Positions 38,991 through 63,869 of a DNA stretch of 64,000 nt are shown one piece after another (position 1 is the first letter of the stretch; each line of letters begins with the position of its first letter). The translations under genes and the position numbers were made by a program. The stretch lies in the sequence record AB897757.1; one strand, written 5' to 3'. The DNA is from Klebsiella phage K64-1. Under the pieces are notes generated by a model that saw only the letters and a list, made by a program, of their open reading frames with translations, ran no database searches and was not told the origin of the DNA.

Positions 38991-41201
38991 TTAGCTATTG
39001 AATGATATTACATAATCAAAATCAGCGTGGAAAGAAAAATCAAAAGTTCCTGCTGGATGTGAAAATGAGGTTCCTGCACTATCTTTTAAAATTGTTAATA
39101 CATCAGTACTTGGAGTAACTAATGGTATTAATGTCACACCAGTTGCCTGTGGAGTAAACACACTACCTTTTGTATATCCAGTTTGAATTGAGCTTGAAAT
39201 AAATGGTAAACCAGATATTCTAAATGGTCCAGCCGTATTAATAGTCAAATTACTATTTCTCAATCTTATATGTATTCTGATTATATCACCGAATCTGTGA
39301 TATATACCAGTTGCTTCCGTTAGAGTTATATAACTTCCTGCAATTTGAAGTACAGGAGTAAATGTTCCATAATCATATTTAAATTGTGCATTTGATGAAG
39401 TGAATACCAACGGTTGAACAAATGCATATGAACTATTGAAAACGTATTTGCTTACCCAACTATTTTTAAACTCCTGAAGGGTTAACATTGAATAACTACT
39501 AGTATCATCTGATCTTCTATATTGTCTATGTATTTGACCACCAGTAACAATTGGGTTTATTTCATTTGAGACTGATTGTTGAACATGTCCAGATCTAGTA
39601 ACATCCATACAACCAATATTACCTCTACATACCATTGCTGGGAAGAAATTTTGTGAAGGATCCCAAGGGTCTACGTTATCTACATTAAAACGATTACCGG
39701 TTGTATTACCGGCAGCATAATTGATTATACCAACTCTTTCTAAAATTACATTTCCTATTTTACTATTACCTACCCATGAACCTGATTGTGATGTATGATA
39801 AAATGGAGTTCTCGGAGACCACATTATTTTGGCTTCTAAAATATTACAATTTAATATTTCACGACCATATCTTGAATATACAGTTTTGGCACGACCTGTT
39901 ATTCCTTTATATTCACCCAACGGCCATACACCAGTTTGTTTATTATTTGATAATCTACCACCATTTGCGGTTGTTATGGAATTAGCAGTTTTAAAAAAAT
40001 ATGTATTAAAAAAATTATCCAGTGAAGAATATGCAGTATGCGTGAAATTAAGACTTGTATCACCATAATAGTGATATTTTTCAGTGAAACTAGAATCATT
40101 CCATCCTGCTCTATAAATGTCTGATGCAGGATATGGTGGTAAATAAGTTGATGCATAAGCATAGTTTCTTGTTAGCCATTGCCCACCAAATACATCACCT
40201 GCTATATTATACCATAATTTAATAAATCCTCTTTCAACTGCGTCTTCACCTTGAAATATCCCGGTTATTCCACAACTTGAAATTTGTAAATTATCCTCAG
40301 TTGAAAATGCACTAATTCCTTCACATAATCTACCAATCATAAATCCTGATATATTTAAATCATGCATATGATATCTTACATAACCATCTTTTCCAGAATC
40401 ACCAGAAATAAAAACACCAATTGTTCCATTTAAATCATATGGCCCACTAGTTTTGCTCCAATTACCACGAATACCAGTAGTTTGCATATTTGTTCCAATT
40501 ATAACAGAATCGTTGTATAGTCTAATTGCTGCCCTCATTGTATAAATTGGTTCTGGATCTATATTTTGATCAGTTCCGGCAGTTATCCATCCCGGATAAA
40601 CAGTACCGTCATCTCTTGGTAATTCATAAGTTTGTGGAAATGTTATACATGGATATCTTTGTGACAATACAACTGGTAAATTATTAGTTTTTCCATAATC
40701 AATTGCCGCTTGTAAATAAGGAACTGCATCTAATGTAGTTCCATGTATATATTTTTCATTATTAATGACAAACATTTCTGGAGTTATAAATTTTAATGCA
40801 TCTTTTAATACTCCACCAGTATCAAGTGTTATATTATTTGAAATATTATCCAAATTTTTTTGTACTGATAACCCGTTACTAGTTCCAATTTTACCAGCAG
40901 CATCATCATTAGAAAGAATAATTTGTTCTAAAATATTAATTTGATATGATGATATATTAGTTACTATAATAATAGTTGATTCATCTACAATATTCCAAGA
41001 ATCAACCATCCCTGTTTCATTCCCATTAAGTTTCCAAATTGTTTCAGTACTGGAATCATATACAAATTTTAAACCAGCAATATCTAGTCCATCTTCTAAA
41101 TATTTTACTTCCTCAATTTTTGACCCAGTAATTCTTGCTATGCTTTGTATATTAGTTTCTTTAGAAACTGAACCTTTCGGTTGTATTAAACTATTTGTCA
41201 T
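38991..41201 (-). CDS. tailspike/tail fibre protein, anchor family A (N-terminal LIQPKGSVSKETN)
   Basis: conserved N-terminal 55 aa shared with four other minus-strand genes; G/N/T-rich beta-helix-like body; TATAAATA late promoter upstream. Confidence 0.75.
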   Translation of the reverse strand: MTNSLIQPKGSVSKETNIQSIARITGSKIEEVKYLEDGLDIAGLKFVYDSSTETIWKLNGNETGMVDSWNIVDESTIIIVTNISSYQINILEQIILSNDDAAGKIGTSNGLSVQKNLDNISNNITLDTGGVLKDALKFITPEMFVINNEKYIHGTTLDAVPYLQAAIDYGKTNNLPVVLSQRYPCITFPQTYELPRDDGTVYPGWITAGTDQNIDPEPIYTMRAAIRLYNDSVIIGTNMQTTGIRGNWSKTSGPYDLNGTIGVFISGDSGKDGYVRYHMHDLNISGFMIGRLCEGISAFSTEDNLQISSCGITGIFQGEDAVERGFIKLWYNIAGDVFGGQWLTRNYAYASTYLPPYPASDIYRAGWNDSSFTEKYHYYGDTSLNFTHTAYSSLDNFFNTYFFKTANSITTANGGRLSNNKQTGVWPLGEYKGITGRAKTVYSRYGREILNCNILEAKIMWSPRTPFYHTSQSGSWVGNSKIGNVILERVGIINYAAGNTTGNRFNVDNVDPWDPSQNFFPAMVCRGNIGCMDVTRSGHVQQSVSNEINPIVTGGQIHRQYRRSDDTSSYSMLTLQEFKNSWVSKYVFNSSYAFVQPLVFTSSNAQFKYDYGTFTPVLQIAGSYITLTEATGIYHRFGDIIRIHIRLRNSNLTINTAGPFRISGLPFISSSIQTGYTKGSVFTPQATGVTLIPLVTPSTDVLTILKDSAGTSFSHPAGTFDFSFHADFDYVISFNS

Positions 41202-41227
41202 CTACTTAACCTCATATGTAATTGCAA

Positions 41228-41235
41228 TATTTATA
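41228..41235 (-). promoter_or_regulatory. T4-type late promoter TATAAATA (minus strand)
   Basis: tatttata on plus equals TATAAATA on minus, about 26 nt upstream of ATG 41201 with RBS gaggt. Confidence 0.55.
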
Positions 41236-41252
41236 ATTCATCAAAACCTTAA

Positions 41253-43208
41253 TTATATTAAAAATAGTCTAATATAACATCTTGTTATTGTTGGTGTTAT
41301 TGGTGATGCTGTTGGATTATATAATGTTACATAAAAAGAGCCATTAATATTATTAGAAACAACTGAACATAGTAAACCATTAATATTTCCATCAAATTTA
41401 GGTTGTGAAAATGATTGTATTAAACCAGTGACACCAATCGTATCAGTGTAACTTTGTAATGCAGATGTGATGGATGCACCAGCGGCAATAGCCCCTGGAT
41501 TAAATGCAAAGTTCCAATCAATATATTTTGAACGTTGTATATATATGCCATCAAATAATATAGAAACGGTACCTGAATTTATGAAACGTAAACTTCCTGC
41601 TCCAATTTGTGATGGTTTTAACTGAAATGTTATAAGTTGCCAACCAGTAGATGCTGTTATAGTACTAGAACCAATATCAGTCGTACCATCAATATTTAAT
41701 TTTAATTCACCATTAGTTCCAGCAGTATCTACACATTTTACACGAGCTTGAATTGTCAATACTGTGTTAGAATCTAAATATTGTTTACCCAATTGAAATC
41801 TTCTAATTTCAACCAATGATGGTACATTCATTGTCGTGTACAATGATGCCATGGTGTCAGTTTGAAACATATTATTACTAGTACCAAACATGTTATGTGC
41901 TGAAATAAAATTTGGATCAATATAATCACCAACAGATGTTATGTTTCCATTACTAGTAAAACAAATAACAGGCTCTATACTTTGCGGTCTAGTACTTGTA
42001 ACATTAAATTGCATATTACCGCTGGCGACCACACCTCTATTATAAAAATTTCCAGATGCTTGTAATTTTCCACCTTCAACTGAACCAAAATATCCAGAAC
42101 AAGATAATGCGTCATTATCAATTAATTTAGTAAGATAAGCACATCCCGAACGCATACGTAATATGCCTTCATAATTATTATGATCAGTTGTGAAATGTGT
42201 AAAACCATTATTTGTTATTCTACATCTTGACATTTGCCCAAAGTCAATAACCGCTTTAGGGGTAATATTAGCACTTGTTGGTGTACCATCCCATTCGAAC
42301 TTATTACGTTCAATCCATATTAAATCTGGATTTGAATTAGTTGATGATTTAATCCAATTCCCACTACTATAACCTAATGTATTATTAGAAAAATGAAAAT
42401 TATTTACATTACTATTTGGAGTTCCAATATAATCATCCATTAATAAAATACCAGTAGTATCACTACCTATTCTTCTGAATAATGTATATTCACATGATGA
42501 TTCCATCATATCACGAGCAATAATTCCCCAGTCAGATATATTTTGAATAGCACAATTATTGATTCTCATATACGACCACGAAGTAACTTTAATTAAAGGT
42601 CCAGTATCAGTACTTGATTCACCTCGAACTTGTAAATTAAATAAACCACCACCCATTGGCCTTGTAGTTTGACCAGTACCATTAAAATGTATACCATAAC
42701 TTGCTGATGCTATTTTTTTAATAGTACTGCCGCCCGTATTAATATTAGAACCAGAATCTCCCCACAAACGTAATGTAGATGTAATATCTAATTCACCTAT
42801 CATAACATCTTTATAAATTTCACGAGGAGGAATATATAAAGATTCTGTCCCAGCTAAAATAGCTTTTTTAAATCTAGTGCTATCATCCGTAGCTGAATCT
42901 GAATCATAATCTAATAAATTTGGTATATTTTTAGTTAAACCATATGAAAATAGAGTATATGTCCCACTTGATGTTGTTAATATACATTTTACTGGATCTG
43001 AAACCCATGAAATCACATTACCATTAATAAAATTTCCGACATATGGTATTTGTGTATTATTATCAATAAAAACTTTTATGGTGGATGTATCAAGTCCAAC
43101 ACTAATATATTGTACTTCATCTATTTTAGTATTAAATTCAATTGCACATGATTTTCTAGATGTGTATCTTGATGTTGAACCTTTTGCTTGTGTTAATTCA
43201 GTAGACAT
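41253..43208 (-). CDS. tailspike/tail fibre protein, anchor family A (divergent N-terminus MSTELTQAKGSTS)
   Basis: N-terminal similarity to the IQPKGS family; beta-helix-like repeats. Confidence 0.7.
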   Translation of the reverse strand: MSTELTQAKGSTSRYTSRKSCAIEFNTKIDEVQYISVGLDTSTIKVFIDNNTQIPYVGNFINGNVISWVSDPVKCILTTSSGTYTLFSYGLTKNIPNLLDYDSDSATDDSTRFKKAILAGTESLYIPPREIYKDVMIGELDITSTLRLWGDSGSNINTGGSTIKKIASASYGIHFNGTGQTTRPMGGGLFNLQVRGESSTDTGPLIKVTSWSYMRINNCAIQNISDWGIIARDMMESSCEYTLFRRIGSDTTGILLMDDYIGTPNSNVNNFHFSNNTLGYSSGNWIKSSTNSNPDLIWIERNKFEWDGTPTSANITPKAVIDFGQMSRCRITNNGFTHFTTDHNNYEGILRMRSGCAYLTKLIDNDALSCSGYFGSVEGGKLQASGNFYNRGVVASGNMQFNVTSTRPQSIEPVICFTSNGNITSVGDYIDPNFISAHNMFGTSNNMFQTDTMASLYTTMNVPSLVEIRRFQLGKQYLDSNTVLTIQARVKCVDTAGTNGELKLNIDGTTDIGSSTITASTGWQLITFQLKPSQIGAGSLRFINSGTVSILFDGIYIQRSKYIDWNFAFNPGAIAAGASITSALQSYTDTIGVTGLIQSFSQPKFDGNINGLLCSVVSNNINGSFYVTLYNPTASPITPTITRCYIRLFLI

Positions 43209-43239
43209 TATATAATTTCTCCAAATATAATCTTAATAA

Positions 43240-43247
43240 TATTTATA
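43240..43247 (-). promoter_or_regulatory. late promoter TATAAATA (minus strand)
   Basis: inside a conserved 38-bp promoter/UTR cassette also present at 45394-45431. Confidence 0.55.
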
Positions 43248-43249
43248 AA

Positions 43250-43278
43250 GAAAAAGCCCCCAGAGAGGGGGCTTTATT
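43250..43278. terminator. terminator hairpin (agccccc/gggggct)
   Basis: 7-bp GC stem flanked by A/T runs. Confidence 0.55.
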
Positions 43279-43284
43279 GTTAGT

Positions 43285-45393
43285 TTATCCAGCTAATATA
43301 AAAGAAACCATTCTAGAAACATTAATATTTCCAGTAAATCCAGATACTTGCCATCTTGGTTTACATTTTACAGCACCCACTGGGGCATTGAATGTCCTAG
43401 ATGGTGTAGCAATATATCTACTATTACCATCTGAATAGTTTGGTAATGTTGTATCATTAAAAACAGTTCTCATATTTATTGATGAAGCAGATGAAGTTGA
43501 AATTAAATTGTCATTTACATCATACCAAGCAACTGAAAAAGTACACTGAATATTTCCAGTACTATCTAGTGCCGACAATGATAAATATAGACCTAATCTA
43601 TTTTTTACTGTAACAGGAATAAATGATTTAGTGGCTAAGTTAAAATAACCACCGGCACCAGTGACTTGTAATTGAGTTCCAGCAGTTCCACCTGTTATAA
43701 CTGTAGCAGACATGGCATTTCTATCTACACATGTATAACGTGTGAGTGCATCTAATGTTGCAGTACTGTTTACCACGGTGCCTACAACTTCATCACCCAT
43801 ATTATAACCTTTATTAAGTATCATTGTGTTAGATGGTAGTTGGAAGTAAGGATCTTTAATATATCCATTAATATATAATATAGTTTCATCTGAACACATT
43901 AAACAATCTTCTAGGTAAGGAGTTACTTCATGTCTTTGGTCTAGCCCATTGATATATACTGGGGTAGATTTTGCATCAATATGCAATCTACTAGATGAGT
44001 TAGTTCCAGTCGTATTGCTTCTTAACCTACTCAAATTAGTTATATTGTTCATAATAATAGATCTGTTGGAACCTACACTAGAACTTTGTGGACTTTCTGC
44101 TGAAAGAAGTAAACCATTGTATCCTTCCATATGACAACTCGTAAAGCTTACTTTAGAATATCCCCAAGTTGAAGTTCCATAAAAAACATTACCACTCGTA
44201 AAATCAAAAGAGCAATTAGTGAAATTTACATCAAAACCAGGCTGACTAATTTGAATGTGATTAGTTCTAGAACCACCAATTGTACAATCATTAAAAGTCA
44301 TCCTTTCGCCAGAGTTAGAACTCGTAGTATTAGGTACATAAATTCCAATTATTGTACTTTCTATATGGCAATCGGTTGCTGTAAATAAATAGGTATTTAT
44401 TGAACCAAAGGTTAAACCGTATCTTACCCCTCCTATAGATACACCATATAGAATGACATTTCTAACATCACTCATATTACTGGTATTACCAACAAAAATA
44501 CCATCTACATTTCCATCAAGGGTATTACCTAATACGCGGAAAGTACCTCCAATAGAACCTAGATTCCAACCTTTGTGATATGTTGTACTTATTCCTGACA
44601 CCTTATTTATTATTCTTATAACATAACTATTATCAGGCATACCTGAGCCATCAATTGTCACATTACCAATAGCAACAACAGAAACATAAGAGGGAATATC
44701 AAGTTGTCTTGATGGTTTGTAGGTTCCAGCCTTTAAATAAATAGCTTTTCTCCCATAAAAACCAACATTGGATACATAATTACTAACAATGGCAACAGCA
44801 GCATCCCATGCATCTGAAAAATCAACTGCTGGATTAAGAGCACCAAACCAAGCCATATCGATATAGTTCTCTGGTCTTTTCCATCTTTTTCCTGTTGCAG
44901 TGACAATAACAGTATATCCATCATCGATGGAAGTTACATCAGAAGAATCATAACAAAATATACCACCAGTAGTTGTACCTAATGTTGAATTTATTTGATT
45001 TAAAATAATTTGTTGACCATTTGTGGTTGGTTCTATTGAACGCAGCGAAGTTACAGATGATACTTTTCCTATATTACTATATCCTACTTCTCCTGTAATT
45101 TCTTGTCGCAAGTTAATATCTACTTGAGTTTTAATCAAAGCGAATTGCCCAGATGTAGTTTGTAATGTCAGTGAACCATTAGTAATAATCCATGAAATTG
45201 GAGTTCCAGTGGCTGTACCACGATACCAACAAGTTTCTGTACTTTCATCATATAAAATTGTATAAGGATCTATAAGTACTGAAGTAGATATATATCCTAC
45301 CGCAGTTTTTTTAATTCCAAAAAGACGAGCTATCGCTTCTTTATTTGTTTCTTTTGATATAGAACCTTTTGGCTGTGTTAATTTATTTGCCAT
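43285..45393 (-). CDS. tailspike protein, anchor family A (MANKLTQPKGSISKETN)
   Basis: conserved N-terminus; beta-helix-type repeats rich in N/G/T/S. Confidence 0.75.
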   Translation of the reverse strand: MANKLTQPKGSISKETNKEAIARLFGIKKTAVGYISTSVLIDPYTILYDESTETCWYRGTATGTPISWIITNGSLTLQTTSGQFALIKTQVDINLRQEITGEVGYSNIGKVSSVTSLRSIEPTTNGQQIILNQINSTLGTTTGGIFCYDSSDVTSIDDGYTVIVTATGKRWKRPENYIDMAWFGALNPAVDFSDAWDAAVAIVSNYVSNVGFYGRKAIYLKAGTYKPSRQLDIPSYVSVVAIGNVTIDGSGMPDNSYVIRIINKVSGISTTYHKGWNLGSIGGTFRVLGNTLDGNVDGIFVGNTSNMSDVRNVILYGVSIGGVRYGLTFGSINTYLFTATDCHIESTIIGIYVPNTTSSNSGERMTFNDCTIGGSRTNHIQISQPGFDVNFTNCSFDFTSGNVFYGTSTWGYSKVSFTSCHMEGYNGLLLSAESPQSSSVGSNRSIIMNNITNLSRLRSNTTGTNSSSRLHIDAKSTPVYINGLDQRHEVTPYLEDCLMCSDETILYINGYIKDPYFQLPSNTMILNKGYNMGDEVVGTVVNSTATLDALTRYTCVDRNAMSATVITGGTAGTQLQVTGAGGYFNLATKSFIPVTVKNRLGLYLSLSALDSTGNIQCTFSVAWYDVNDNLISTSSASSINMRTVFNDTTLPNYSDGNSRYIATPSRTFNAPVGAVKCKPRWQVSGFTGNINVSRMVSFILAG

Positions 45394-45421
45394 TATAATT
45401 CTCCAAATATAATTATAATAA

Positions 45422-45429
45422 TATTTATA
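45422..45429 (-). promoter_or_regulatory. late promoter TATAAATA (minus strand)
   Basis: in the conserved cassette; RBS ggag. Confidence 0.55.
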
Positions 45430-45432
45430 AAT

Positions 45433-45459
45433 AAAAAGCCCCGATATTGGGGCTTTTTA
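45433..45459. terminator. terminator hairpin (aagcccc/ggggctt plus T5)
   Basis: GC stem plus T-run. Confidence 0.55.
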
Positions 45460-45464
45460 TTTAA

Positions 45465-48400
45465 TTAACCAGACACTTGAATATTAAATGTCATATTAGT
45501 AGTCGGTGCAACATCAACATATATAGTAACTGTAGTTCCAGAAACAACCGTCCAATATTTTGTTGGGCCACTATATGTTCCTTGTGGGGTTACTTGAACA
45601 GAAAATGCAGAAATAGAACCAATAAAAGTTGATGATAAATCATATCCAATACTAGTTTGACCAGCAGGAATTGACCATTGATTTCTATAAAAAGAATAAT
45701 CTCTTCCAGTAGATGTATTAATTACATTTGATAACATTTTCATCGTTATGGATGTTGCAGTTACTGGTGTCGTTGTTCCATCAAATTCGGTATTAGCTAT
45801 TTTCAATTTATTAATTGATGTTGAATTTCTAGCATATATTTTTTTAATTATGCCATAACAATTAGTCATAGATAAATTAACTAAATTGTTAAATGTCCCA
45901 ATAGTATAATTTGTTGTCGAATTAAATTTACAATTATTAAAACTAACTCTAGTATTTGATGTATATTCGTTTTGACCAATATAGTCAACAACCGCACTAT
46001 TACCTGTTATAGTTGAATCAAATTGACAATTATCAAATGATATATCACGCAATACATATGTTAACTGTAATCCAGTCGTTGGTAATGTAAACTTACAATT
46101 AATATATTTTAATGTCTTACCATCTTTAAACACAGTATTAGATTGATCATTACTTACATCTATTCTACCAAAATGACAATCTCTATATACATCAAACAAT
46201 TGTGAATTTATTTGTGAATATGCATTTGGCATTATAATATTTTCAGCAACCCAATATGTTTGTACTATATTAGATGAATTTGGGTATGTATATACCAATG
46301 GAACACCACTAGTAGTGTCAAGTGAATATCCATTTGACACTTTCATATATTCACATGTACCAAGTGGTGAAATTATACCACCTACATTTTTTCCAACTTG
46401 AAAATTCTTGATATCAAAATGGACACAATCACCATTAACTACTACAATAACAGCATATCCAGGAGTTTGAGTTTGTTTAAAAGTCAATCCATCAATACAA
46501 AAATAATCATTAAGACCAATTGTTTGTGATGATTTAACAACTGCACATGCATGACTAGCAATAGAATTATTTGGATTAACTCCAATAGAATCAATCATCA
46601 TATTTTTAAATAAAATATTTTTATTATTTCCACCACCATTCCCAGAAATATAAAATAAATGTTCACCTATATTATCTGCATATATTCCATCTAATACAAT
46701 ATTAGATATATTATTACCCCATTGACTTCCACAATATAAAGAATTAACCATAGTAGTATTTTGAAAATATACAAACGTTGAATTATTTCCCAATCTCCAA
46801 TTTATCACTCTACCATACCAAGGATTCGTTCCTGATGTATCAATAATATTACTTCTATTACCATCAGTATATAATCCTGATACGGTAGAATAACTTAAAC
46901 TGTTAAAACGAATCATATCGCTATCTAATGGAGTTGCTCCATCAGGTAATTTAAATATAGTTCCATCAAATTTAAAAGTCATACCTTTTAATGTAGGTAT
47001 TACTACTGTTGTTATTAAAATTGTTCCAGTTGGTGTTATATATGTCATTCCAGACGTTAATGAATTAACTTCACTTTGCATTAGTGCTGTTTGATCTTGT
47101 GTTGAATTTGGTATTAATTTACTTATCAATACTTTACTATCAGTAAATTGTTTTTTTATATTATCTATTTCTGCTTGAACACTTAGACCACTTGAAGTAC
47201 CTACAATGCTAGATCCATTATTTGATGATAATAGTACTGAATTTACTTTATTGTTAAGAGTTTGCTGTAAATTGTTTCCATCAGATGTACCAACCATTAA
47301 TGAACCAGTATTTGATGATAAATCAGATTTACTAACAAATTGACCATTAGCAGTTTCATAAGTCAAATATGGATTAGTATTAAGAATTAATTTTCCTAAT
47401 ATTGCAACTAAATTATCTCCAATATTCAACGAACCATTAAGATCTATGTATTGACCATTATAAGTATAATGTCCTAATTCGATATTTTGTAATACACCAT
47501 TAATAAAAATATTAATACTTCCAAAATTATATGGAACAAAAATTCTGTTAATATTATCACTAGTTGCGGTATATGTCCAAGTAATAACATCTTTATTGGA
47601 GTCCAATTTATAAAACGGAGTAGAAGGTACATTTCCTAATGTACCAATACCAGACCAGACTGTACCATCTACCGGATATAACCAGTACTGATTTATTGTT
47701 GAAGTATTACCTGCTTTCCAAATTTTTAATGATCTTCGTGGTAATCCAAATGCTACTTCAATACTAGGTAAATGTGGTTGCCATTTTAAATTAATACCCT
47801 CAGCTTTTAATGAATCTTTTAATAAGTTCAATTCAGTAATTGATGCATAAGAACTTAAATCAGCTTTAGTAACTATATTGTCATCTTGTATAGGAGAATT
47901 ATATACAATAACGTGTATATCATCACCTTCTTGTAGTGGTGAACTTAATGTTACTTCTGTTCCATTTAAATCATAAGCTCCATTATCTGGATTTTGTAGA
48001 ATACCATTAATAAAAACCTGTAATTCACTAAAATGGAAATAAGGAATATTTATTTTATTACTGTTATTTACATCATCAATTACACTATTATACTCGGTAT
48101 TAATATTGTCAATTAAATTTAAACTATCCAAGAAAACTAATACTTCATCTCCTGCAAAAAGCTTACTTACGAATGATAATGTATTTCCTGATATTGTATA
48201 ATGTGTATCATATTGTAAAACCCCATTAATATATACAACTGGATCTATTATTGTACCTGTTATAGTAAAATCAGTTTGGTCTTGTATTGCTACTGCTGTG
48301 TAATTAGGCACAATCTTATCATTACTTAATACAAATATATTATCATCTTGTTGCATTGAAGAATTCAATGTAATAGTATTGTTTACTATTGTAAATGAAT

Positions 48401-49046
48401 TTGGGTATTGTAAAACACCATTTATGAATAAGTAATTACTATTTTTTTCATATGGTAAAATAATAGTTGTTTGATTATCTAATGCAGTACTAATATATTG
48501 TGTGTTAGTTGTATTATCTGAATCTTCACCAACAACAATATAAACATTATCACCAGCTTGTAGAGAATTCGAGAATGTTACAGTACCACCAAATGTTTGA
48601 TATGATATACCAGGATATTGCAAAATTCCATTAATATAAATTATTGCTTTTTTGAAATCCAAATTAGGAACAGTAAAAACAGTTTGTCCGGCTGATGCAA
48701 TTGAACTCCATGTGACGGTTGTTTTAGTAGAATCAAATATAGTAACCCAGTCAGAATCATTACTATTATTAACCACTCGCATCATAAGTTTAACTGGTGC
48801 TGAATTATTATTTTCCCAATCACCTGTGTTAAAAGATAGCATCCCAGCAACATTATCTTGTTTTCCAAAATTTGTCACTAATGTATTACTAGCAAGATCA
48901 GTAGTACTTGAATTATCAATTTCATTAATTGTGAATTTACCTTCAGGCATATTTTTAGAATCTGGTAATTTTTCATTATCAAATTTCACACCACCTTTAA
49001 GTGTAGCATCAACCGCTGATAGTGAGCCTTTAAATTTAAATGCCAT
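45465..49046 (-). CDS. large tail fibre protein (1193 aa) with tandem FINGVLQ-type modules and the HLP.VEVA.GL shared module
   Basis: at least five about 75-aa repeats containing [IV][FY]ING[VI]LQ ... GD.[IV].V; internal module [16 protein letters not shown]...YWLY.DGTVW shared with 53300, 56315 and 59378 genes. Confidence 0.7.
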
Positions 49047-49095
49047 GTCATAATTCCTTTTAAATTAAAAATCTATAAAGTATTTAATAAAAAAT

Positions 49096-49120: not shown

Positions 49121-49126
49121 AATCTT

Positions 49127-53267: not shown

Positions 53268-53270
53268 ATA

Positions 53271-56220: not shown

Positions 56221-56274
56221 ATTAAACCTCATCTAAAAGTTTATGTATAGTATTATTTATGATGCACATTAGAA

Positions 56275-56282
56275 CTAAATAC
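56275..56282 (+). promoter_or_regulatory. putative late promoter variant CTAAATAC
   Basis: same CTAAATACAT element precedes the 59378 gene; about 30 nt upstream of ATG 56315 with RBS agagg. Confidence 0.35.
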
Positions 56283-56314
56283 ATGAAAGCAAATGCAAAC
56301 TAAGAGGTTTTGAC

Positions 56315-59305
56315 ATGTCTTTAAGTAATTTAAGCTCAAGTAACAGTAATGGGGCATTTCTTGATTATGGAGAATTCAGAAGTGGTGTTTACATCCAAAC
56401 ATCAAATCAGATTTTATACTTCACTGATGAAAATGGAAATAAAGTAGGTTATCAGTGGAAGGGACTTTTGCCTCACACAACAACAACAAATGATCCAAGC
56501 ACGGATGGTGGTATTTCGGATACTGCTTGGTGTAGTATTGTTGGCAGTGGATTTATTGAAAAATTATCAAAAGAGGGGATTGATTTAAGTTGGAAAGCAC
56601 ACTTACCAACAGTTGAAGTTTCTTACAATTTACCGCATAAATCACTAAAAATATGGGAAGAAGGTACGAATAGTACTGATAATGATTATTGGTTATACCC
56701 AGGTGATGGTACCGTGTGGAATGGGATTGGTGTTCTTGGTGATATACCAGATGCACCTTTTAAGCAAATTGTACCACAAAATAATGTAATAGAATGGAGT
56801 GCAATTGCAACAGAAGGACAAAACCAATTTACTGTACCGTATGAATTCACAAATATATCAGTTTTTATTAATGGATTATTACAGAATAAAAGTACTGGTG
56901 GATATGTAGTTAATGGTAGTACTGTTACATTAAATGGTTCATTAAAAGCTGGTGATGACATTCACGTAGTAATATCAAATATCCCTATTAAAAATATAAA
57001 TTATATTACTGATGTTGAATTATCACAACCCGATGCAGCACAAAAAATTGGATTATTGCATGGTGGAAATATACAAAATTTACAAAATTTTCTTTCTTTT
57101 GATATGTTTAATATTGATAAAACTGGTTCAACTGATGTAACTAGTCAAATAAATAATATTTTTTCATTAGCAAATCAATTAAATATTCCAATAAAACAAC
57201 ATGATGGTACATATTTAGTTTCTGGCTCCACTATATTTACAATAAACACGGATTGTGATCTATCCGGCGTAACAATTTTACCATCTTCTAATTTTACTGG
57301 ATATTTTCTATATACACAAAATGAACAGCCAACAACATATAATTCATCTTCATCATTGGTCACTTTAATAAATTCAGCAACAATTAATGCAAATGATTCA
57401 ATATTATATGGATTAATAAATGATACCACATTGGATGGTAATGCTATTTTTATGAAAGGCAATGATCCTCTATATGTTGCTCGTGGCACAACAAAAAATT
57501 GGTGGTGTAATACGAGAATATCAAATCGAGGTAAAATGGATGATTATTTAAAATATGGGGTATCAGGTATAAATGAAGTTATTTCATTACCTATATCAAA
57601 AAAAGTAACTACAATAAAATTACCAAATTGGGATTTTATAAATCAACCTGCTAATAATGGCGTAATAAGATTTAATAATATTTCTAGATATAGAATACAC
57701 GGTGGTAGTGTTTTTAATAGGCCACTTAATGATATAAATAAAGATCCAGTTATAATTAGTATAAATTATGCATATGATATAATACTTCAAGATTTTTATG
57801 ATGAATATCCATCTTGGCCATTAGTAGGTGGCTCTATTGCTTATGCATATACTATAAATTTCAACTATATTAATCGTGTTACATTTAAAGATATTAATTC
57901 ACAAGGTTATGGTTGGGGAATTGTTGGGGGGCAACTAGCAACTAATATTACATATCTTCGTTGTAATATTAATAGAGTTGATATGCATGATCCATTTATG
58001 GGGTATTTAAAAATTTTAGACTGTGATTTGGGATATTATGGCGTATCTGCAACTGGTATGGGAGATATGTATATTGAAAGAACTACTTTTAATATTGATG
58101 ATCTAGCATTTAATGGTTGGAGAGAAGTTGATGGTATAATAAACACTAGACCGGATTTTGGTGGGTGGTTTGATGGTGGTGTATATATAAAAGATATTAC
58201 AATTATTGGAGATGCATCCAAATTTAGAGAAATTAATAATCGCGGAGTTTCTTTATTTTCAGCATATTCATATAATGCAACATTAAGTTATATTCCGAAT
58301 GGATCACCAGTCGAACCGTGGGGATTTAAAGAAATTATAGTTAATGGATTACGATGCACTAAACCTATAACAGGAAAAAGATTTTCATCACTAGTATATG
58401 CTGCTTCTGTACAAAATGTAGATTATTTTCCAAGACATGTAAAATTTAATAATTGTGATTTTAATTCTTCTGATGTTGAATGTATAGATTTACATGGATG
58501 GAAAATAACACCAGACAATTCAAGTAAAACATCAATATCAAATACTATGAATTTTAAATCAACAAATTTTATAGAATTCACTGATTGTTCATTTGTGGGG
58601 TTAGAAATTTTAAGACCATATTCTTCATATGATTATATGAATTTAGAGTTAAAACTTAATAATTGTAAATATATTGGTTCAAACATTTCTCCTATTAGTT
58701 TTTACACTGATCAAGTTGGAAATTACGAGTTTACAAACTGTGATATCAATTTTATTAGTGATACTACAAAGAGTACTTCAAGTTTATCAAATAGACAGTC
58801 ATCATTTGTAATAAATGGTGGTCAGATAAATTCTGTATCAGTACCATTTTCAATATTATATAATAGTGGTTATTCGACTCCAGTTTTAGTTAATAATACA
58901 ATTTTTAAAGGTTCATTTTCACAATCATCAGTGACTTCTATTAATTTAAATGTGGCAGAATTCGCACAATTATCAAATTGTAGATTTTATAGTAATGTGA
59001 ATAATTCTTATATATCACCAGCATTATGGCTAGGTAGTACTTCGAACTCAGCAACATCAATAACTGTTATGCGTGGAAATAAAATTAATACAGTTATAAC
59101 CAATACCACAACTGTTAGTGGTATATCCATAAAAACTGATATAATTCCATTTGGAGTTGCATCTGGACACATAAATGGGTCTTTTTATGTTGATGCTACT
59201 GGAACAACTGGAACATACCAATTGTATTTAAATTCGTTGAATTTGAAATCACAAATTGGAAAAATTGTTTCAAATGGTACAATATCAGGAATTTATTTAC
59301 AGTAA
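56315..59305 (+). CDS. tailspike/tail fibre protein, anchor family B (996 aa)
   Basis: N-terminus MSLSNLSS...QILYFTD...GYQWKGLLPH...TDGGISDTAW shared with 53300, 59378 and 61710; HLPTVEVSYNL module; one FINGLLQ module. Confidence 0.75.
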   Translation: MSLSNLSSSNSNGAFLDYGEFRSGVYIQTSNQILYFTDENGNKVGYQWKGLLPHTTTTNDPSTDGGISDTAWCSIVGSGFIEKLSKEGIDLSWKAHLPTVEVSYNLPHKSLKIWEEGTNSTDNDYWLYPGDGTVWNGIGVLGDIPDAPFKQIVPQNNVIEWSAIATEGQNQFTVPYEFTNISVFINGLLQNKSTGGYVVNGSTVTLNGSLKAGDDIHVVISNIPIKNINYITDVELSQPDAAQKIGLLHGGNIQNLQNFLSFDMFNIDKTGSTDVTSQINNIFSLANQLNIPIKQHDGTYLVSGSTIFTINTDCDLSGVTILPSSNFTGYFLYTQNEQPTTYNSSSSLVTLINSATINANDSILYGLINDTTLDGNAIFMKGNDPLYVARGTTKNWWCNTRISNRGKMDDYLKYGVSGINEVISLPISKKVTTIKLPNWDFINQPANNGVIRFNNISRYRIHGGSVFNRPLNDINKDPVIISINYAYDIILQDFYDEYPSWPLVGGSIAYAYTINFNYINRVTFKDINSQGYGWGIVGGQLATNITYLRCNINRVDMHDPFMGYLKILDCDLGYYGVSATGMGDMYIERTTFNIDDLAFNGWREVDGIINTRPDFGGWFDGGVYIKDITIIGDASKFREINNRGVSLFSAYSYNATLSYIPNGSPVEPWGFKEIIVNGLRCTKPITGKRFSSLVYAASVQNVDYFPRHVKFNNCDFNSSDVECIDLHGWKITPDNSSKTSISNTMNFKSTNFIEFTDCSFVGLEILRPYSSYDYMNLELKLNNCKYIGSNISPISFYTDQVGNYEFTNCDINFISDTTKSTSSLSNRQSSFVINGGQINSVSVPFSILYNSGYSTPVLVNNTIFKGSFSQSSVTSINLNVAEFAQLSNCRFYSNVNNSYISPALWLGSTSNSATSITVMRGNKINTVITNTTTVSGISIKTDIIPFGVASGHINGSFYVDATGTTGTYQLYLNSLNLKSQIGKIVSNGTISGIYLQ

Positions 59306-59334
59306 AAATAAAAGCACCTTCGGGTGCTTTTATT
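59306..59334 (+). terminator. intrinsic terminator (aaagcacc ttcg ggtgcttt)
   Basis: 8-bp stem, 4-nt loop, T-run. Confidence 0.6.
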
Positions 59335-59338
59335 TTTA

Positions 59339-59346
59339 CTAAATAC
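59339..59346 (+). promoter_or_regulatory. putative late promoter variant CTAAATAC
   Basis: between terminator and ATG 59378 (RBS cgagg). Confidence 0.35.
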
Positions 59347-59377
59347 ATAATAAAATCTTTATAACGAGGTTTATTAA

Positions 59378-61681
59378 ATGTCATTAATTCAACTTTCACC
59401 AAGTAATGGTGATTTATTATTAATAAATTCCGGCTCATTTAGTACTGGTAAAGTTATAAGAACTAGAAATGAACTTGTTTTTTATACTGATCAATATGGT
59501 AACAGCACTGGATATCGCTGGTTAGGTAATTTACCTCACGTGATTAATGGTAATTCACCACAAACTGATGGTGGTATTTCAAGTACATCATGGGAATCTT
59601 ATATTACTTCAAATTTATATGATAAATTAAAATCAGAAAATATAACTCTATCAGGTACCGCCCATTTACCTACTGTTGAAGTTGCTTATGGACTGAAAAA
59701 AGGATCATTAAAAGTTTGGTCTGCTGGATTAGTCAGTTCATCATCACAGTACTGGTTATATACCGATGGGACTGTATGGAGTGGTGTTGGTGTGTTAGGA
59801 ACTGAACCAGATGTTCCATTCACACAAATACATCTACAACGAGATATTATAAAATATAATTATATTGTTCAAACAGATGGTGAAACACTAATTAATATAC
59901 CATATGATTTTACATCTATCGATGTTTTTATTAATGGTGTATTACAAAATTCGAATTCAGGTTCTTATAAAATTATTCAAAGTACAATTCAGTTTAGCGA
60001 CGTATTGAATAAAGGTGATAATATTCAATTCTATCTTTCTAATGTTCCAATTTCGAGTGTTCGCTTTGCTTTATCTAGTGATTTAACTAATTATGTTTTA
60101 AAATCAGACCTTTCTAATACATCAGGTGCGAATAACGTTGGGTTTTATCCAGGCGGGACTGTTCAAGATGCAATCGTATATACTACACCTGAAATGTTTG
60201 GTGCAATTGGAGATGGTATTACAGATGATACTAATGCATTACAAAATGCAATTAATTTTTCAAAAAATAAAACATTACTTTTTAGTAATGGTAAAAAATA
60301 TAGAACAAAAAATTTAATAGTACCACATCCAATGACATTTAAAGGTTTAGGTAGAAGACAAGATGGTGCTATTATTCCATACGGAAATGTTTCATCTGAA
60401 TCATTCATTCATACTGGAACATTAATATTATTAACTACTTCTAGTACAGTAACATTCTATGATCTTACAGTTGATGCAAGAGGAATAACTCTATCATTCG
60501 TTGATGGACAAAGATTAACTGGAGTTGGTGCAGCAGACAATAACAGTGGTGTATATCAATCTGGTCTTCAAATGTATAATTGTAATGTTTCTGGATTTAG
60601 TGGGAATAATTTATACGGCGGCGGGTCAAAATCATTTGGTATCCTAAAAGATTGCCAATTTGAAAGTTCGGGTAAATCATGTGTTAGAATAGATGGTGTA
60701 GATTGGAGAATTTCACATTGTGCAATTGGTAGATCATTAGAATCTTATGGTATTGAAATTCTAAATGAGAATAACTTTGTTTCTAATTGTGATTCTTATT
60801 TCAATAAACTTTCTGGTATTTTTTATCAACAACCAACTGGAATGGCTTTTATTAAATTAATAGGGAACACTATTAACAGTAATGGTCAACATGGTATTTC
60901 TTGTTCATTACCATATGCCCAGCCAGCAGGTACCGTAATTACGAACAATATTTTTTGGAATAATAGTACAGAATTGACAGGAACTTATCATAATATTGAT
61001 TTAAATTATGGTCGAGGACATATAGTTGAAAATAATGTTCATAAAGCATATCAAGCCACTGCTGGTTCTGATTCTGCGAGATGTGGTTACTGCATAAATT
61101 TGAGAAACGGGGCAACACTATCTGGATTCATTAATGATGCAATAGATCCATTATACTCATATGTTATCGATAAGATAAATGTAAATTCCCAAAATTTTGC
61201 TAACCAAAATGAAATATCAATTGGTACAGGTTTATCATTAACAAAAACCGTATCTTCAGATACATCAATAGGAATAAAACTTAATATAAATTCAGAAAGC
61301 TATGATAGAGTTCAAATAAATCCTGGTAAAATTTTATTAGGAAATGGTTCAGCAGAACCAACACATGGTATACAACAATTAGCAGCGTATCCTGGAATAA
61401 CAATGGGAGTACTAGGATTAGGTGTTGTTGGAAATTATTCTTCATCAGTTTTTCGTATAGGGACACATCGTATATGGTCTGGTGGCGATAACACACTGAG
61501 AACCAAATATGGGGCAGATCCTACATCAGCAACAGATGGAAATATATTATCAGTAAAAGTGTCAGTCCCATCTACCGCTACAAGTACTGGTATAGTTGGA
61601 CAATGGGCAGCCGATGATACATATTTATATATATGTACAGCAGCTAACACATGGAAGAGGGTATCTATAAATACTTGGTAA
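59378..61681 (+). CDS. tailspike protein, anchor family B, pectate-lyase-fold depolymerase-like
   Basis: family-B N-terminus; HLPTVEVAYGL module; FINGVLQ module; MFGAIGDGITDDTNALQNAIN pectate-lyase-3-type motif; beta-helix repeats. Confidence 0.75.
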   Translation: MSLIQLSPSNGDLLLINSGSFSTGKVIRTRNELVFYTDQYGNSTGYRWLGNLPHVINGNSPQTDGGISSTSWESYITSNLYDKLKSENITLSGTAHLPTVEVAYGLKKGSLKVWSAGLVSSSSQYWLYTDGTVWSGVGVLGTEPDVPFTQIHLQRDIIKYNYIVQTDGETLINIPYDFTSIDVFINGVLQNSNSGSYKIIQSTIQFSDVLNKGDNIQFYLSNVPISSVRFALSSDLTNYVLKSDLSNTSGANNVGFYPGGTVQDAIVYTTPEMFGAIGDGITDDTNALQNAINFSKNKTLLFSNGKKYRTKNLIVPHPMTFKGLGRRQDGAIIPYGNVSSESFIHTGTLILLTTSSTVTFYDLTVDARGITLSFVDGQRLTGVGAADNNSGVYQSGLQMYNCNVSGFSGNNLYGGGSKSFGILKDCQFESSGKSCVRIDGVDWRISHCAIGRSLESYGIEILNENNFVSNCDSYFNKLSGIFYQQPTGMAFIKLIGNTINSNGQHGISCSLPYAQPAGTVITNNIFWNNSTELTGTYHNIDLNYGRGHIVENNVHKAYQATAGSDSARCGYCINLRNGATLSGFINDAIDPLYSYVIDKINVNSQNFANQNEISIGTGLSLTKTVSSDTSIGIKLNINSESYDRVQINPGKILLGNGSAEPTHGIQQLAAYPGITMGVLGLGVVGNYSSSVFRIGTHRIWSGGDNTLRTKYGADPTSATDGNILSVKVSVPSTATSTGIVGQWAADDTYLYICTAANTWKRVSINTW

Positions 61682-61709
61682 TTAATAAAATAAATAGGAT
61701 TTATCAATT

Positions 61710-63869
61710 ATGTCATTAACTAATTTAAACTCAACAAACTCAAAAAGTATGTTGATTAATTCAGGAACATTTAGAAGTGGGGTGTATATAACCTCACCTA
61801 ATCAATTTCTATCATATACTGATAATAATGGAATGAATGCTGCATATTATTATACTGGTGTTTTGCCATATACAACTTCATCAAATACCCCAACATCAGA
61901 TAGTCCATTATGGAAAATATTATACATCGCCGATAAGTTTTCTTATCTTAAAACCGATATTGTACCAATTACAAGTGGTGGTACTGGTGCAAACACTGCA
62001 CAAAATGCAAGAACTAATTTAGGATTAGGAACTGCAAATACTCCTACATTTTCAAATATTGAATTAAGTTCTTTAACACCATATATAGATTTTCATTTTA
62101 ATAACAGTTCATCTGATTATACTACTAGGTTAATAGAGAATTCAAGCGGTGAATTAACATTAGTTGGTTCATTAAGATTGAATAACAATTTGGTGGTTAC
62201 AGGAAACACCACACTAGTAAATGCATTACCTATAGCAAGTGGTGGTACTGGTTCTAATACAGTTGCTGCCGCCAATACTGCATTTGGATTAGGAACAGGA
62301 GACAGTCCAACATTCCAAGGATTAAATATTCAATACGTTGGAAATGAACCAAGAATAAATTTGAATAATTCAGTGTTTAGATCTAATGCAGGTAATGCAC
62401 TGGTTATAAGTGCTTTACAAGGAATTTATTTAAGGCCAGCAGGTGATAATGTATCAACACCACAAATTTTATATTCAACGGCTGGTACATTGACAATGAC
62501 TGGTACTAATGTAAGTATAAGTGGTAGTTTGACACTTGGTACTGCATTGTCTATATCAAGTGGTGGTACCGGAGCAATCGATGCACCAACAGCAAGAACT
62601 AATTTAGGATTAGGAACATCAGCTACTGTAAATACTGGAACATCTGGTGCAACGATACCTTTATTAAATGCGGCAAATACATGGTCATCTACACAAACAA
62701 TACAGGGAAATCTTGCAGTAGGTACTGTTGGTACTACTTCTACTATTACCCTTGGAGGTTCTTCATTTGCACGAGATAATGGTTCAAAAGCATTAATAAT
62801 CACTTCATCCTCGGCGTCAGATGCATCACCTGCCGGAATTTATTTAAGACCAATGGGCGATACTGTAAGTACTGTACAAATTTATGGTAATTCAACTGGA
62901 TGGTCTATTAATGGAAATACGTTAGTTTCTGGTACTTTGTCCAACACCGGTGCTGCTAGTTTTCTTAATAATGTGTATACTGTGGATAGTACTGGATTTT
63001 ATTCATCTACTACAGGTAAAGTACTAGGTTCATCAACTAACCCTTGGTCAACAAATTATAGTAATTCAGTTACATCAGGTACTTCAACTGCATTATCATT
63101 AAATGGTACATCAAATAGTATAAATTTACAAATTGGAGGCACAACATTAATTCAACTTGGAACATCTGGATTTGTATCAAACAACAATGTAAGTTATCGT
63201 TCTAAAAATACTACTGGAACATCATTGGATATTTGTAAAATTGATACTAGTAATATTACACAAATTGGTAATATTACTATACCAACTAACATAAATTCTT
63301 CAGTACATCCAACAGTAAACGTGGCTGGTACTTCTTATACACTTTATAGTACTGGAAACAAACCTACGGTAAGTGCATTTAGAGCAAGTTATTTAACCAC
63401 CGCTGGTTCTGATTCTAAACAAACATTAACTGCATCTAATACACCACAGACTTTATTGGTCAATACCATAACTGCTGCATCGAGTATCATAACTGCTAAC
63501 ACCAGTACTGGAACATTCTTATCAAATGTCACACAAGGAATGATGTTATGTATAAGTGCTCAAATCATTAGAGAAGTAACTGGTGGTGGTGATGTTTATT
63601 GGATGATGTTTTTGGAAACAAGTCCTGATGGAACGACATGGACACCAGTTACAGGTTCAAATAGAATAGTTACATTAAGTTCTAGTACTACAAATGAAAT
63701 GAAACAAGTAGATTTTTCAGTAGCAATACAATCTACAGCGGGAACATATCTTAGAATTCGACATGCATGTACAGATAGTACTAAAACCGTTTCTGTAATT
63801 TCTAAAGATTCGTTATTTGCAGGTGTTCCAATTTCATCTGGTTTGATAGTAAGTTTCTTAACTATATAA
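61710..63869 (+). CDS. tail fibre protein, anchor family B, with phage tail-fibre repeats (SGGTGA..A..AR.NLGLG)
   Basis: three copies of the [PS]I[AST]SGGTG[AS] ... NLGLGT repeat typical of distal tail fibres; family-B N-terminus. Confidence 0.75.
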   Translation: MSLTNLNSTNSKSMLINSGTFRSGVYITSPNQFLSYTDNNGMNAAYYYTGVLPYTTSSNTPTSDSPLWKILYIADKFSYLKTDIVPITSGGTGANTAQNARTNLGLGTANTPTFSNIELSSLTPYIDFHFNNSSSDYTTRLIENSSGELTLVGSLRLNNNLVVTGNTTLVNALPIASGGTGSNTVAAANTAFGLGTGDSPTFQGLNIQYVGNEPRINLNNSVFRSNAGNALVISALQGIYLRPAGDNVSTPQILYSTAGTLTMTGTNVSISGSLTLGTALSISSGGTGAIDAPTARTNLGLGTSATVNTGTSGATIPLLNAANTWSSTQTIQGNLAVGTVGTTSTITLGGSSFARDNGSKALIITSSSASDASPAGIYLRPMGDTVSTVQIYGNSTGWSINGNTLVSGTLSNTGAASFLNNVYTVDSTGFYSSTTGKVLGSSTNPWSTNYSNSVTSGTSTALSLNGTSNSINLQIGGTTLIQLGTSGFVSNNNVSYRSKNTTGTSLDICKIDTSNITQIGNITIPTNINSSVHPTVNVAGTSYTLYSTGNKPTVSAFRASYLTTAGSDSKQTLTASNTPQTLLVNTITAASSIITANTSTGTFLSNVTQGMMLCISAQIIREVTGGGDVYWMMFLETSPDGTTWTPVTGSNRIVTLSSSTTNEMKQVDFSVAIQSTAGTYLRIRHACTDSTKTVSVISKDSLFAGVPISSGLIVSFLTI

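Follow-up and report, generated by a model that had tools for sequence, protein, structure and literature searches.

How one Klebsiella phage can attack many capsule types is the question raised by a locus of ten spike and fibre genes at positions 38991-63869 of the window, i.e., the 64,000-nt stretch of the Klebsiella phage K64-1 genome (AB897757.1) analyzed in this work. The first-pass annotation had placed ten tailspike/fibre genes here, and exactly these were present: ten contiguous ORFs encoding proteins of 584-1193 aa. The minus strand carries seven of them and the plus strand three, with the divergence point at 56221-56314. All ten showed 100% DNA identity over their full length to the K64-1 deposits S1-2, S1-3, S1-1, and S2-1 to S2-7, and the cluster is syntenic with gp526-gp534 of phage RaK2, which bore out the suggested placement in a RaK2/K64-1-like group. 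It adjoins nrdD/nrdG, downstream of which the order is a minus-strand block, the divergent promoter, and a plus-strand block. We are highly confident that this region is the long-tail-fibre (receptor-binding protein) gene cluster of the Klebsiella jumbo myophage K64-1 (genus Alcyoneusvirus), explained by a branched fibre. The sequence identity, domain content, and mosaic pattern of the cluster are direct observations. The cluster is real and not new, as it has already been published and biochemically characterized: K64-1 S1/S2 depolymerase genes (genome NC_027399) are described by Pan et al. (2017, J Virol 91:e02457-16). The ORFs analyzed here do not differ from those genes in any respect, and the published specificities transfer directly; unlike the other S1/S2 genes, S2-8 (identical to RaK2 gp098) is located outside the window.

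Five minus-strand genes share an N-terminal module (family A), as had been proposed, with the difference that the alignment spans ~95 aa and not 55 aa. These genes, each 100% identical to its deposit, encode depolymerase spikes: S1-2 (38991-41201, 736 aa, KN4, LC121098; adaptor at 40917-41201), S1-3 (41253-43208, 651 aa, K21, LC121099; adaptor at 42924-43208), S1-1 (43285-45393, 702 aa, K11, LC121100; adaptor at 45109-45393), S2-2 (49127-50881, 584 aa, K25, LC121102; adaptor at 50597-50881), and S2-3 (50891-53230, 779 aa, K35, LC121103; adaptor at 52946-53230). The alignment contains 11 invariant columns, with 27-42% identity to its first sequence and pairwise BLASTP E-values of 1e-6 to 1e-22, and the predicted structure reaches a pLDDT of 80-90 across aa 20-90. 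In Foldseek, the model matched the N-terminal head regions of CBA120 TSP3, TSP1, TSP4, and TSP2, G7C gp63.1, and Shigella phage B2 gp48 (E ~1e-5, 27-38% identity; structures matched include 5w6f, 4oj5, 5w6h, and 4qnl), and phmmer gave direct matches to TSP3 aa 3-89; the N-termini of S1-2 and S1-1 match the same protein. The family-A adaptor is the CBA120-type D1 head domain on client spikes. It occurs in 318 phage records; many of these are ~155-160 kb long and come from phages of Salmonella, Klebsiella, Escherichia, Dickeya, and Serratia, presumably largely Ackermannviridae. The bodies behind the adaptor, previously described as unrelated, are largely so, apart from weak similarities between S1-1 and S2-3 (27% over 426 aa) and between S1-3 and S2-2.

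The idea of two N-terminal anchor classes had to be replaced by three, as S2-1 (45465-49046, minus strand, 1193 aa, LC121101, 100% identity), a root fibre and KN5 depolymerase, has a putative baseplate anchor of its own. This unique anchor (aa 1-105, 48732-49046) is followed on the same strand by four XD units (47889-48728), an HLP module (47577-47798), a fifth XD (47385-47597), and then a neck and beta-helix, and the HMM census accordingly counted one root module, five XD, and one HLP. S2-1 also has a Pfam DUF4183 match, and its XD region matches S2-4 (9k4a) and two other tail proteins, Gp44 (8es4) and the tail fiber gp9 (23sh), in the PDB.

A family-B N-terminus had been claimed for four genes. 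It spans ~80 aa, is of the D2 type, and its profile matches CBA120 TSP1 aa 102-162 and TSP4 and, weakly, Pfam Tail_spike_N. Three plus-strand genes, again 100% identical to their deposits, align over it: S2-5 (56315-59305, 996 aa, K64 depolymerase, AB897513), with the adaptor at 56315-56554, HLP at 56576-56797, and XD at 56777-56989 according to the HMM census; S2-6 (59378-61681, 767 aa, K30/K69 depolymerase, LC121105), with the corresponding modules at 59378-59617, 59639-59857, and 59837-60052; and S2-7 (61710-63869, 719 aa, LC121106), a non-enzymatic fibre in which the adaptor (61710-61949) is followed by SGGTG...NLGLGT fibre repeats. The S2-7 gene is kept in six of six relatives, and Pfam and PDB searches found no beta-helix or lyase body domain in its product. 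The claim failed for the fourth gene, S2-4 (53300-55966, minus strand, 888 aa, K1 lyase, LC121104, 100% identity), which starts with METEGL and lacks the module, the latter being encoded upstream at 55967-56220. As annotated, S2-4 comprises HLP (55739-55954), two XD (55313-55744), and then K1-lyase rider, beta-helix, and C-terminal domains (Pfam K1-lyase_Rider and K1-lyase_C).

Two further modules noticed earlier were both confirmed. HLP (HLPTVEVAYGL) occurs in S2-1, S2-4, S2-5, and S2-6 with 28 invariant columns, its AlphaFold confidence being low (pLDDT 36-57), and the FINGVLQ motif ([FYVI][FYIV]NG.[LI]Q) was found nine times in exactly those four genes (5, 2, 1, and 1 units, respectively), compared with an average of 0.02 occurrences in shuffles. 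Foldseek related the XD region to the N-terminal fragment of CBA120 TSP4 (residues 1-335, 7rfo/7rej) and to a chain of the T4 baseplate-tail tube complex (5iv5), and HHpred probabilities of 90-96% were given for T4 gp10-like XD domains by Latka 2019. The FINGVLQ units are T4 gp10-like XD branching domains.

The expectation that the heads would be mostly unassignable or uncharacterized was not upheld, since capsule types have been assigned by experiment to all but one of the ten proteins, most bodies have solved homologues, and the S2-4 structure itself is solved (9k4a/9k4b). The assigned types are K11, KN4, K21, KN5, K25, K35, K1, K64, and K30/K69 (Pan 2017, as relayed in PMC11652154); S2-7 is reported as inactive and the other nine as active on capsule (Latka 2019; Pan 2017, through the same secondary source). 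Depolymerase-type bodies were recognized by Pfam (Beta_helix, K1-lyase, Peptidase_S74) and by PDB homologues (9m4c, 6tku, 7xy1, 9k4a, 8x8m). The S1-2 body matches 9m4c/9m4d (E 1e-88), of which 9m4c is a KN1-specific depolymerase, S1-3 matches KP32gp38 (6tku, E 5e-115), S2-5 matches 8x8m (E 1e-233), and S2-2 combines a Beta_helix match with similarity to the Kp9 fibre 7xy1, while S2-3 contains a C-terminal intramolecular chaperone (Peptidase_S74, PF13884 at aa 653-714; PDB 3gud, 3gw6). For S1-1, S2-1, and S2-6, no Pfam or PDB match above threshold to a characterized depolymerase body was obtained, and they are counted as depolymerases by literature assignment only (PMC11652154).

Most spike genes lie in their own cassette of terminator, TATAAATA late promoter, and Shine-Dalgarno sequence. 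A terminator hairpin follows S1-2 (38964-38987, minus strand), similar hairpins are located at 43253-43275, 49090-49120, 53277-53289, and 63875-63908, and in several of these gaps the TATAAATA late-promoter box of the next gene comes after the hairpin. The divergent control region between S2-4 and S2-5 (56221-56314, 94 nt) is 98-99% conserved among relatives. S2-2 sits just 9 nt past S2-3, and its upstream sequence contains no separate promoter box.

The HMM census of six alcyoneusviruses revealed one root, four family-B, four HLP, and nine XD modules in every genome, and 3-5 family-A modules. The distribution of XD units is also identical in the six genomes, with a root combining a genus-specific N-terminal anchor with five XD, and 2+1+1+0 across the B-type proteins. 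In blastn comparisons a mosaic was visible, in which the 5' adaptor-coding parts are conserved and the head-coding parts are replaced. The long tail fibre of RaK2 (Simoliunas 2013; Noreika 2023, PMC10253068) shares with K64-1 the gene order, the five-XD root protein, the four B-type proteins, and the adaptor families, and the RaK2 counterparts of S2-2, S2-3, and S2-6 show 90-99% identity to them (Latka 2019), whereas the heads of S1-2, S1-1, S2-1, S2-4, and S2-5 are replaced. K64-1 differs further in an extra A-type spike, S1-3, for which Table 5 of Latka 2019 gives no RaK2 counterpart, and thus has nine clients for nine XD domains; the RaK2 model leaves root XD1 unused (Noreika 2023).

D1-type and D2-type head domains and T4 gp10-like XD domains are likewise found in the TSP1-4 complex of CBA120/Ackermannviridae and in the G7C gp63.1-gp66 pair. 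The CBA120 complex has four proteins versus ten in K64-1, and the order of domains is XD followed by D1-D2, in contrast to D2-type, HLP, and XD in the K64-1 B-type proteins. Moreover, the S2-1 anchor is not homologous to the baseplate anchor of TSP4 (a PDB sequence search with S2-1 aa 1-97 found no homologue among solved structures), and no homology to the latter is reported for the RaK2 gp528 anchor (Noreika 2023, PMC10253068). K64-1 thus works like CBA120, yet it falls outside that system at the baseplate interface, because the TSP4-type anchor is absent. The hyperbranched tail fibres of phiKp24 (Ouyang 2022, PMC9700779), a different phage, are alike in concept, i.e., many depolymerase fibres off a jumbo myovirus baseplate.

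These domain homologies and the published branched multi-spike models (Latka 2019; Noreika 2023) agree with the initial proposal of a branched multi-receptor-binding-protein system with constant N-terminal adaptors and differing heads. Judging from homology and the RaK2 model, S2-1 would be the root, fixed to the baseplate by its unique 105-aa N-terminus, and its five T4 gp10-like XD domains would be off-axis docking sites. The four B-type proteins (S2-4 to S2-7) may dock via the D2-type head domain, S2-4, S2-5, and S2-6 adding a second tier of docking sites with HLP and one or two XD, and the five A-type spikes (S1-1, S1-2, S1-3, S2-2, and S2-3) may dock via the D1 head domain; the pairing of docking partners in the K64-1 fibre is predicted by analogy. 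As the depolymerase of each spike differs, a single fibre of trimeric spikes, each with a different beta-helix, would strip K1, K11, K21, K25, K30/K69, K35, K64, KN4, and KN5 capsules and so give K64-1 its multi-capsule host range, which would change by swapping head-coding 3' parts behind conserved adaptor-coding 5' parts. That the proteins are instead soluble, non-virion depolymerases released at lysis is very improbable: some phages do have free depolymerases and the recombinant S-proteins are active alone (PMC11652154), but the docking domains are homologous to structurally defined virion adaptors, PHROG 'tail' families take in all ten proteins, and antisera and immunogold labelling placed the RaK2 orthologues in the long tail fibres (Noreika 2023, PMC10253068).

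The branched fibre as proposed does not explain S2-4, which in the deposited sequence has no D2-type docking domain. The orphaned 5' part (55967-56220, minus strand) consists of 84 codons of the family-B adaptor that are in frame with the annotated ORF but without a start codon. The true ATG is at 56218-56220, with a GAGG Shine-Dalgarno sequence and a CATAAATA box upstream of 56220, and nothing comparable was found upstream of the annotated start at 55966. A TT insertion (A-run, plus strand, 56198-56200) puts the adaptor out of frame with this ATG, which leads to a stop at 56173-56175; DNA alignments show a single A at the same site in RaK2, RCIP0023, Muenster, and KP13-7. The deposited gene record and the construct used for the solved structure both begin with METEGL, the record not including the frameshifted adaptor, and no mention of the frameshift or the 5' adaptor was found in the published accounts consulted. 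The annotated start is probably wrong or reflects the frameshift.

On balance, we lean towards an error of sequencing or assembly in the K64-1 deposit, the real phage then making a K1 lyase of 972 aa whose B-type adaptor is intact, as in its relatives. None of the four relatives has the TT, and all are identical in the surrounding sequence; the 84 upstream codons are still open and ~99% identical to those of relatives, and the Shine-Dalgarno sequence and promoter-like box precede 56220 and not the annotated start. In addition, S2-4 is K1-active and a K1 host range is reported for K64-1 (Latka 2019; PMC11652154), so S2-4 is expected to be mounted on the virion. A change from T to TTT outside a homopolymer is, however, atypical as a platform error, and the deposit looks generally accurate, since only one other uncompensated frame-breaking indel in coding sequence was found in ~54 kb aligned with RaK2. 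This scarcity of coding indels favors a genuine frameshift, which is possible though somewhat doubtful; a truncated K1 lyase starting from Met85 would then be assembled via HLP and XD or be partly free enzyme, or the adaptor would be rescued by non-canonical decoding. The 888-aa product keeps HLP and both XD domains, and it proved soluble, active, and amenable to structure determination. Against it stand the missing signals before 55966, the absence of any in-frame ATG, GTG, or TTG upstream of that position, the failure to find an X_XXY_YYZ slippery heptamer by manual inspection of the 15-codon overlap, and an adaptor (aa 1-84, including the peptide ATNISGALIDAGDFVINK) without decay. We consider it unlikely that a genuine frameshift removes the D2-type docking domain and that all nine XD domains, including the first of the root, are in use. 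If the frameshift is genuine, every biochemical and structural study has used a truncated S2-4 of 888 aa, and the phage mounts the spike via HLP/XD or non-canonical decoding.

The cluster is a textbook case of host range broadened by mounting numerous capsule depolymerases on a single branched fibre, with relevance to phage therapy and to therapeutic enzymes directed at hypervirulent or carbapenem-resistant Klebsiella of types K1 and K64; as both aspects are already published, the finding of the cluster itself adds nothing new. Useful additions may be the S2-4 start/frameshift, which matters to engineering or modelling of S2-4 spike attachment, the per-gene cassettes, which fit modular exchange, and the comparative XD count, as a constant nine-XD scaffold with 3-5 exchangeable A-type spikes constrains assembly models.

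The spike cluster of K64-1 occupies positions 38991-63869 and is a contiguous run of ten long ORFs. They diverge from a 94-nt gap (56221-56314), with seven minus-strand ORFs (38991-55966) on one side and three plus-strand ORFs (56315-63869) on the other. The GC content is about 31% across the region and the sign of the GC skew follows the direction of transcription. In megablast searches of the phage collection, all ten ORFs were 100% identical, end to end, to separately deposited K64-1 genes, i.e., the ORFs at 38991 (S1-2), 41253 (S1-3), 43285 (S1-1), 45465 (S2-1), 49127 (S2-2), 50891 (S2-3), 53300 (S2-4), 56315 (S2-5), 59378 (S2-6), and 61710 (S2-7). This identity, together with the synteny of the cluster with gp526-gp534 of phage RaK2, showed that the window belongs to K64-1 itself and that the assignment to the RaK2/K64-1 group, made with caution in the first-pass annotation, was correct. 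The nrdD and nrdG genes are localized directly upstream of the cluster in K64-1, RaK2, Muenster, RCIP0023, and KP13-7. RaK2 differs in having an extra gene between nrdG and gp526, namely gp525 (570 aa; minus strand, 4681-6393 of RaK2 locus L001), which has no counterpart in K64-1 and carries none of the adaptor modules. Upstream of the spikes there is also a plus-strand block (4710-37628) with RNA-repair and NAD-salvage genes, including those for Rnl1 RNA ligase (4710-5855), PNKP (7043-7987), DNA ligase (14414-15817), NMNAT/Nudix (22657-23721), NAMPT (23797-25269), PIN-PhoH (27873-29312), and NrdD (35823-37628), all on the plus strand. The interval between the NMNAT and NAMPT genes holds an inserted endonuclease in RaK2 (HNH type) and in Muenster (EDxHD homing endonuclease), whereas K64-1 has no insert of this kind. 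The tRNA and Rfam scans of the whole window gave zero matches.

The ten-gene feature is real, its location was given rightly, and its interpretation as a branched multi-spike system with shared adaptors was right in essentials. This is essentially the model that Noreika et al. (2023; PMC10253068) presented for RaK2, and the finding is therefore already known as the published K64-1 depolymerase cluster. For precisely this set of proteins, Latka et al. (2019) had reported T4 gp10-like domains, conserved N-terminal peptides, and an anchor. Noreika et al. (2023) produced models of all the RaK2 orthologues, identified D1-like, D2-like, and XD domains, and placed the RaK2 proteins in the fibre by means of antisera and immunogold labelling. 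In their proposal, the S2-1 orthologue gp528 serves as the root; gp531-gp533 dock on it and act in turn as platforms for the remaining spikes.

The spike heads, previously described as mostly unassignable from sequence alone, are for the most part readily assigned through Pfam and PDB matches, and their specificities have been published. The S2-4 body contains the Pfam K1-lyase rider and C-terminal domains and has been solved as 9K4A/9K4B (construct start METEGL; a literature search for a paper on 9K4A returned nothing relevant). The bodies of S2-5, S1-3, S1-2, and S2-2 match 8X8M (E 1e-233), the K21 depolymerase KP32gp38 (6TKU, E 5e-115), 9M4C/9M4D (9M4C being a KN1-specific depolymerase), and the Kp9 fibre 7XY1, respectively. 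The C-terminus of S2-3 is an intramolecular chaperone (Peptidase_S74), and S2-7 carries fibre repeats and no enzymatic domain. According to a review table (PMC11652154) and Latka et al. (2019), the A-type spikes, i.e., those bearing the CBA120-type D1 adaptor, target K11 (S1-1), KN4 (S1-2), K21 (S1-3), K25 (S2-2), and K35 (S2-3), the other specificities are KN5 (S2-1), K1 (S2-4), K64 (S2-5), and K30/K69 (S2-6), and S2-7 is inactive.

The N-terminal module shared by the five A-type proteins (family A) held up in alignment, although it spans about 95 residues rather than 55. Across the five sequences 11 columns are invariant, those of the QPKGS.S motif among them, and pairwise BLASTP E-values range from 1e-6 to 1e-22. 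The AlphaFold model (pLDDT 80-90 for residues 20-90) matches the N-terminal heads of CBA120 TSP3, TSP1, TSP4, and TSP2, G7C gp63.1, and Shigella phage B2 gp48 (E about 1e-5, 27-38% identity), and a plain sequence search likewise links the family to residues 3-89 of CBA120 TSP3. The second module (family B) aligns over about 80 residues of S2-5, S2-6, and S2-7, but it is absent from the annotated S2-4 ORF (53300-55966), to which it had also been ascribed. Its profile matches residues 102-162 of CBA120 TSP1, and also TSP4, a region that, by analogy with the RaK2 orthologues of Noreika et al., we equate with the D2 head domain; the match of Pfam Tail_spike_N was below threshold. As revealed by tblastn against the phage collection, family A is present in 318 phage records, many of about 155-160 kb and mostly from Salmonella, Klebsiella, Escherichia, Dickeya, and Serratia hosts, and family B in 88, which include many Escherichia phages of about 145-150 kb. 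Both families are general-purpose docking modules.

Two internal modules were recovered in the gene set originally proposed (S2-1, S2-4, S2-5, and S2-6). The HLP module (HLPTVEVAYGL...YWLY.DGTVW.G.G.LG) has 28 invariant columns, and the AlphaFold model of this region is too poor for a judgement based on fold. The corresponding RaK2 domain was termed D1-like by Noreika et al. (2023; PMC10253068). When HLP was tested as a diverged copy of the family-A D1 domain, hhalign gave a probability of 0.2%, and a relationship is thus undetectable at the sequence level. The FINGVLQ motif occurs in nine copies (five in S2-1, two in S2-4, and one each in S2-5 and S2-6), compared with a mean of 0.02 in shuffled proteins, and no reading frame of the window contains a further copy. 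These units match Pfam DUF4183, and the N-terminal 320 residues of S2-4 match both the XD-bearing fragment 1-335 of CBA120 TSP4 and a chain of the T4 baseplate-tail tube complex; the FINGVLQ units are gp10-like XD branching domains. The root protein S2-1 belongs to neither family A nor family B. Its residues 1-105 form a separate anchor with zero solved homologues, followed by four XD domains, one HLP, and a fifth XD. Within S2-1, the HLP+XD cassette of the B-type proteins recurs at residues 378-598 (47385-47900), with about 40% identity to residues 54-260 of S2-5 and S2-6, which suggests that the root may have originated when an anchor and XD array were fused onto a B-type spike.

The absence of family B from S2-4 is explained by the 5' end of the gene. 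The annotated ORF starts METEGLTLDWNAHLP, and the D2-type docking module is encoded by 84 codons directly upstream (55967-56220, minus strand), in the ORF frame, in which it has no start codon. A genuine ATG at 56220 reads MSLNNLS in a different frame and meets a stop after 15 codons. The K64-1 window carries a unique 2-nt insertion here (coding strand AAG[TT]TGCAAC, in the plus-strand A-run 56198-56200) that RaK2, RCIP0023, Muenster, and KP13-7 all lack in the alignment. Deleting both bases yields a 972-aa S2-4, residues 1-259 of which resemble RaK2 gp531; the adaptor region, where translated, would give peptides such as ATNISGALIDAGDFVINK and GTLPHITSTNNPNTDGGISDTAWVPVIYSK. The family-B call for S2-4 in the first-pass annotation was evidently a read-through of this frameshift. 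The promoter-like box CATAAATA and a GAGG Shine-Dalgarno sequence precede 56220, and neither a Shine-Dalgarno sequence nor a promoter box was found upstream of the annotated start at 55966, which supports 56220 as the probable real start. The frameshift was not mentioned in the published accounts of K64-1 fibre genes that we found; the 888-aa form of S2-4 appears in review tables (PMC11652154) and was used for the deposited structure.

Programmed frameshifting is unlikely, since neither an X_XXY_YYZ slippery heptamer in the 15-codon overlap nor an alternative canonical start was found. As a gauge of how prone to error the deposit is overall, the approximately 54 kb of the window that aligns to RaK2 was compared; there are only two uncompensated frame-breaking coding indels, this one and a poly-A difference at 10882. 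A genuine TT insertion, leaving a truncated protein, is possible at a lower probability than an error in the deposited sequence, which we consider the likelier reading, because the S2-4 adaptor is free of decay and K64-1 infects K1 hosts. At 10882 (ORF 10609-11280, plus strand), K64-1 and RaK2 differ as A8 versus A9, and a single 223-aa ORF in K64-1 stands against two small ORFs (ORF480 and ORF481) in RaK2; this is probably a frameshift or an error in one of the two deposits.

To what was already published, the present analysis adds a scaffold census, a mosaic pattern, and gene cassettes. HMMs built from the window's own modules and run on six alcyoneusvirus clusters, K64-1 included, revealed a scaffold constant in all six: one root, four B-type proteins, four HLP, and nine XD domains. 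The number of A-type spikes varies: Muenster and KP13-7 have three, and RaK2, RCIP0023, and GBH019 have four. K64-1 has five, and it alone of the six has as many clients as XD domains (nine of each). In the RaK2 model (Noreika et al. 2023; PMC10253068) the first XD of the root is unused, which gives only eight sites; we infer, from counts and not from binding, that the nine clients of K64-1 exceed them. KP13-7 also carries a truncated 294-aa A-type remnant (15844-16728 of its locus L007), and strings of tiny ORFs resembling decayed cassettes lie between the Muenster spike genes. In blastn comparisons with five relatives, the 5' adaptor-coding parts and the divergent control region were 70-95% conserved and the head-coding parts were replaced; S2-7 was conserved over its whole length.

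Over the window as a whole, the T4-type late-promoter box TATAAATA is rarer than expected, at 12 copies versus 20.8. Five of these copies are candidate late promoters that lie, correctly oriented, 34-44 nt upstream of S1-2, S1-3, S1-1, and S2-3 (exact matches on the minus strand at 41228-41235, 43240-43247, 45422-45429, and 53260-53267) and S2-7 (exact match on the plus strand at 61666-61673). TAAATAC-like variants occur at S2-1, S2-5, and S2-6, and a sigma-70 promoter scan of the window gave results at chance level. At S1-3, S1-1, and S2-3 the box comes immediately after the hairpin that terminates the preceding gene. This arrangement of box, hairpin, and Shine-Dalgarno sequence fits an exchange of spike genes that would proceed cassette by cassette.
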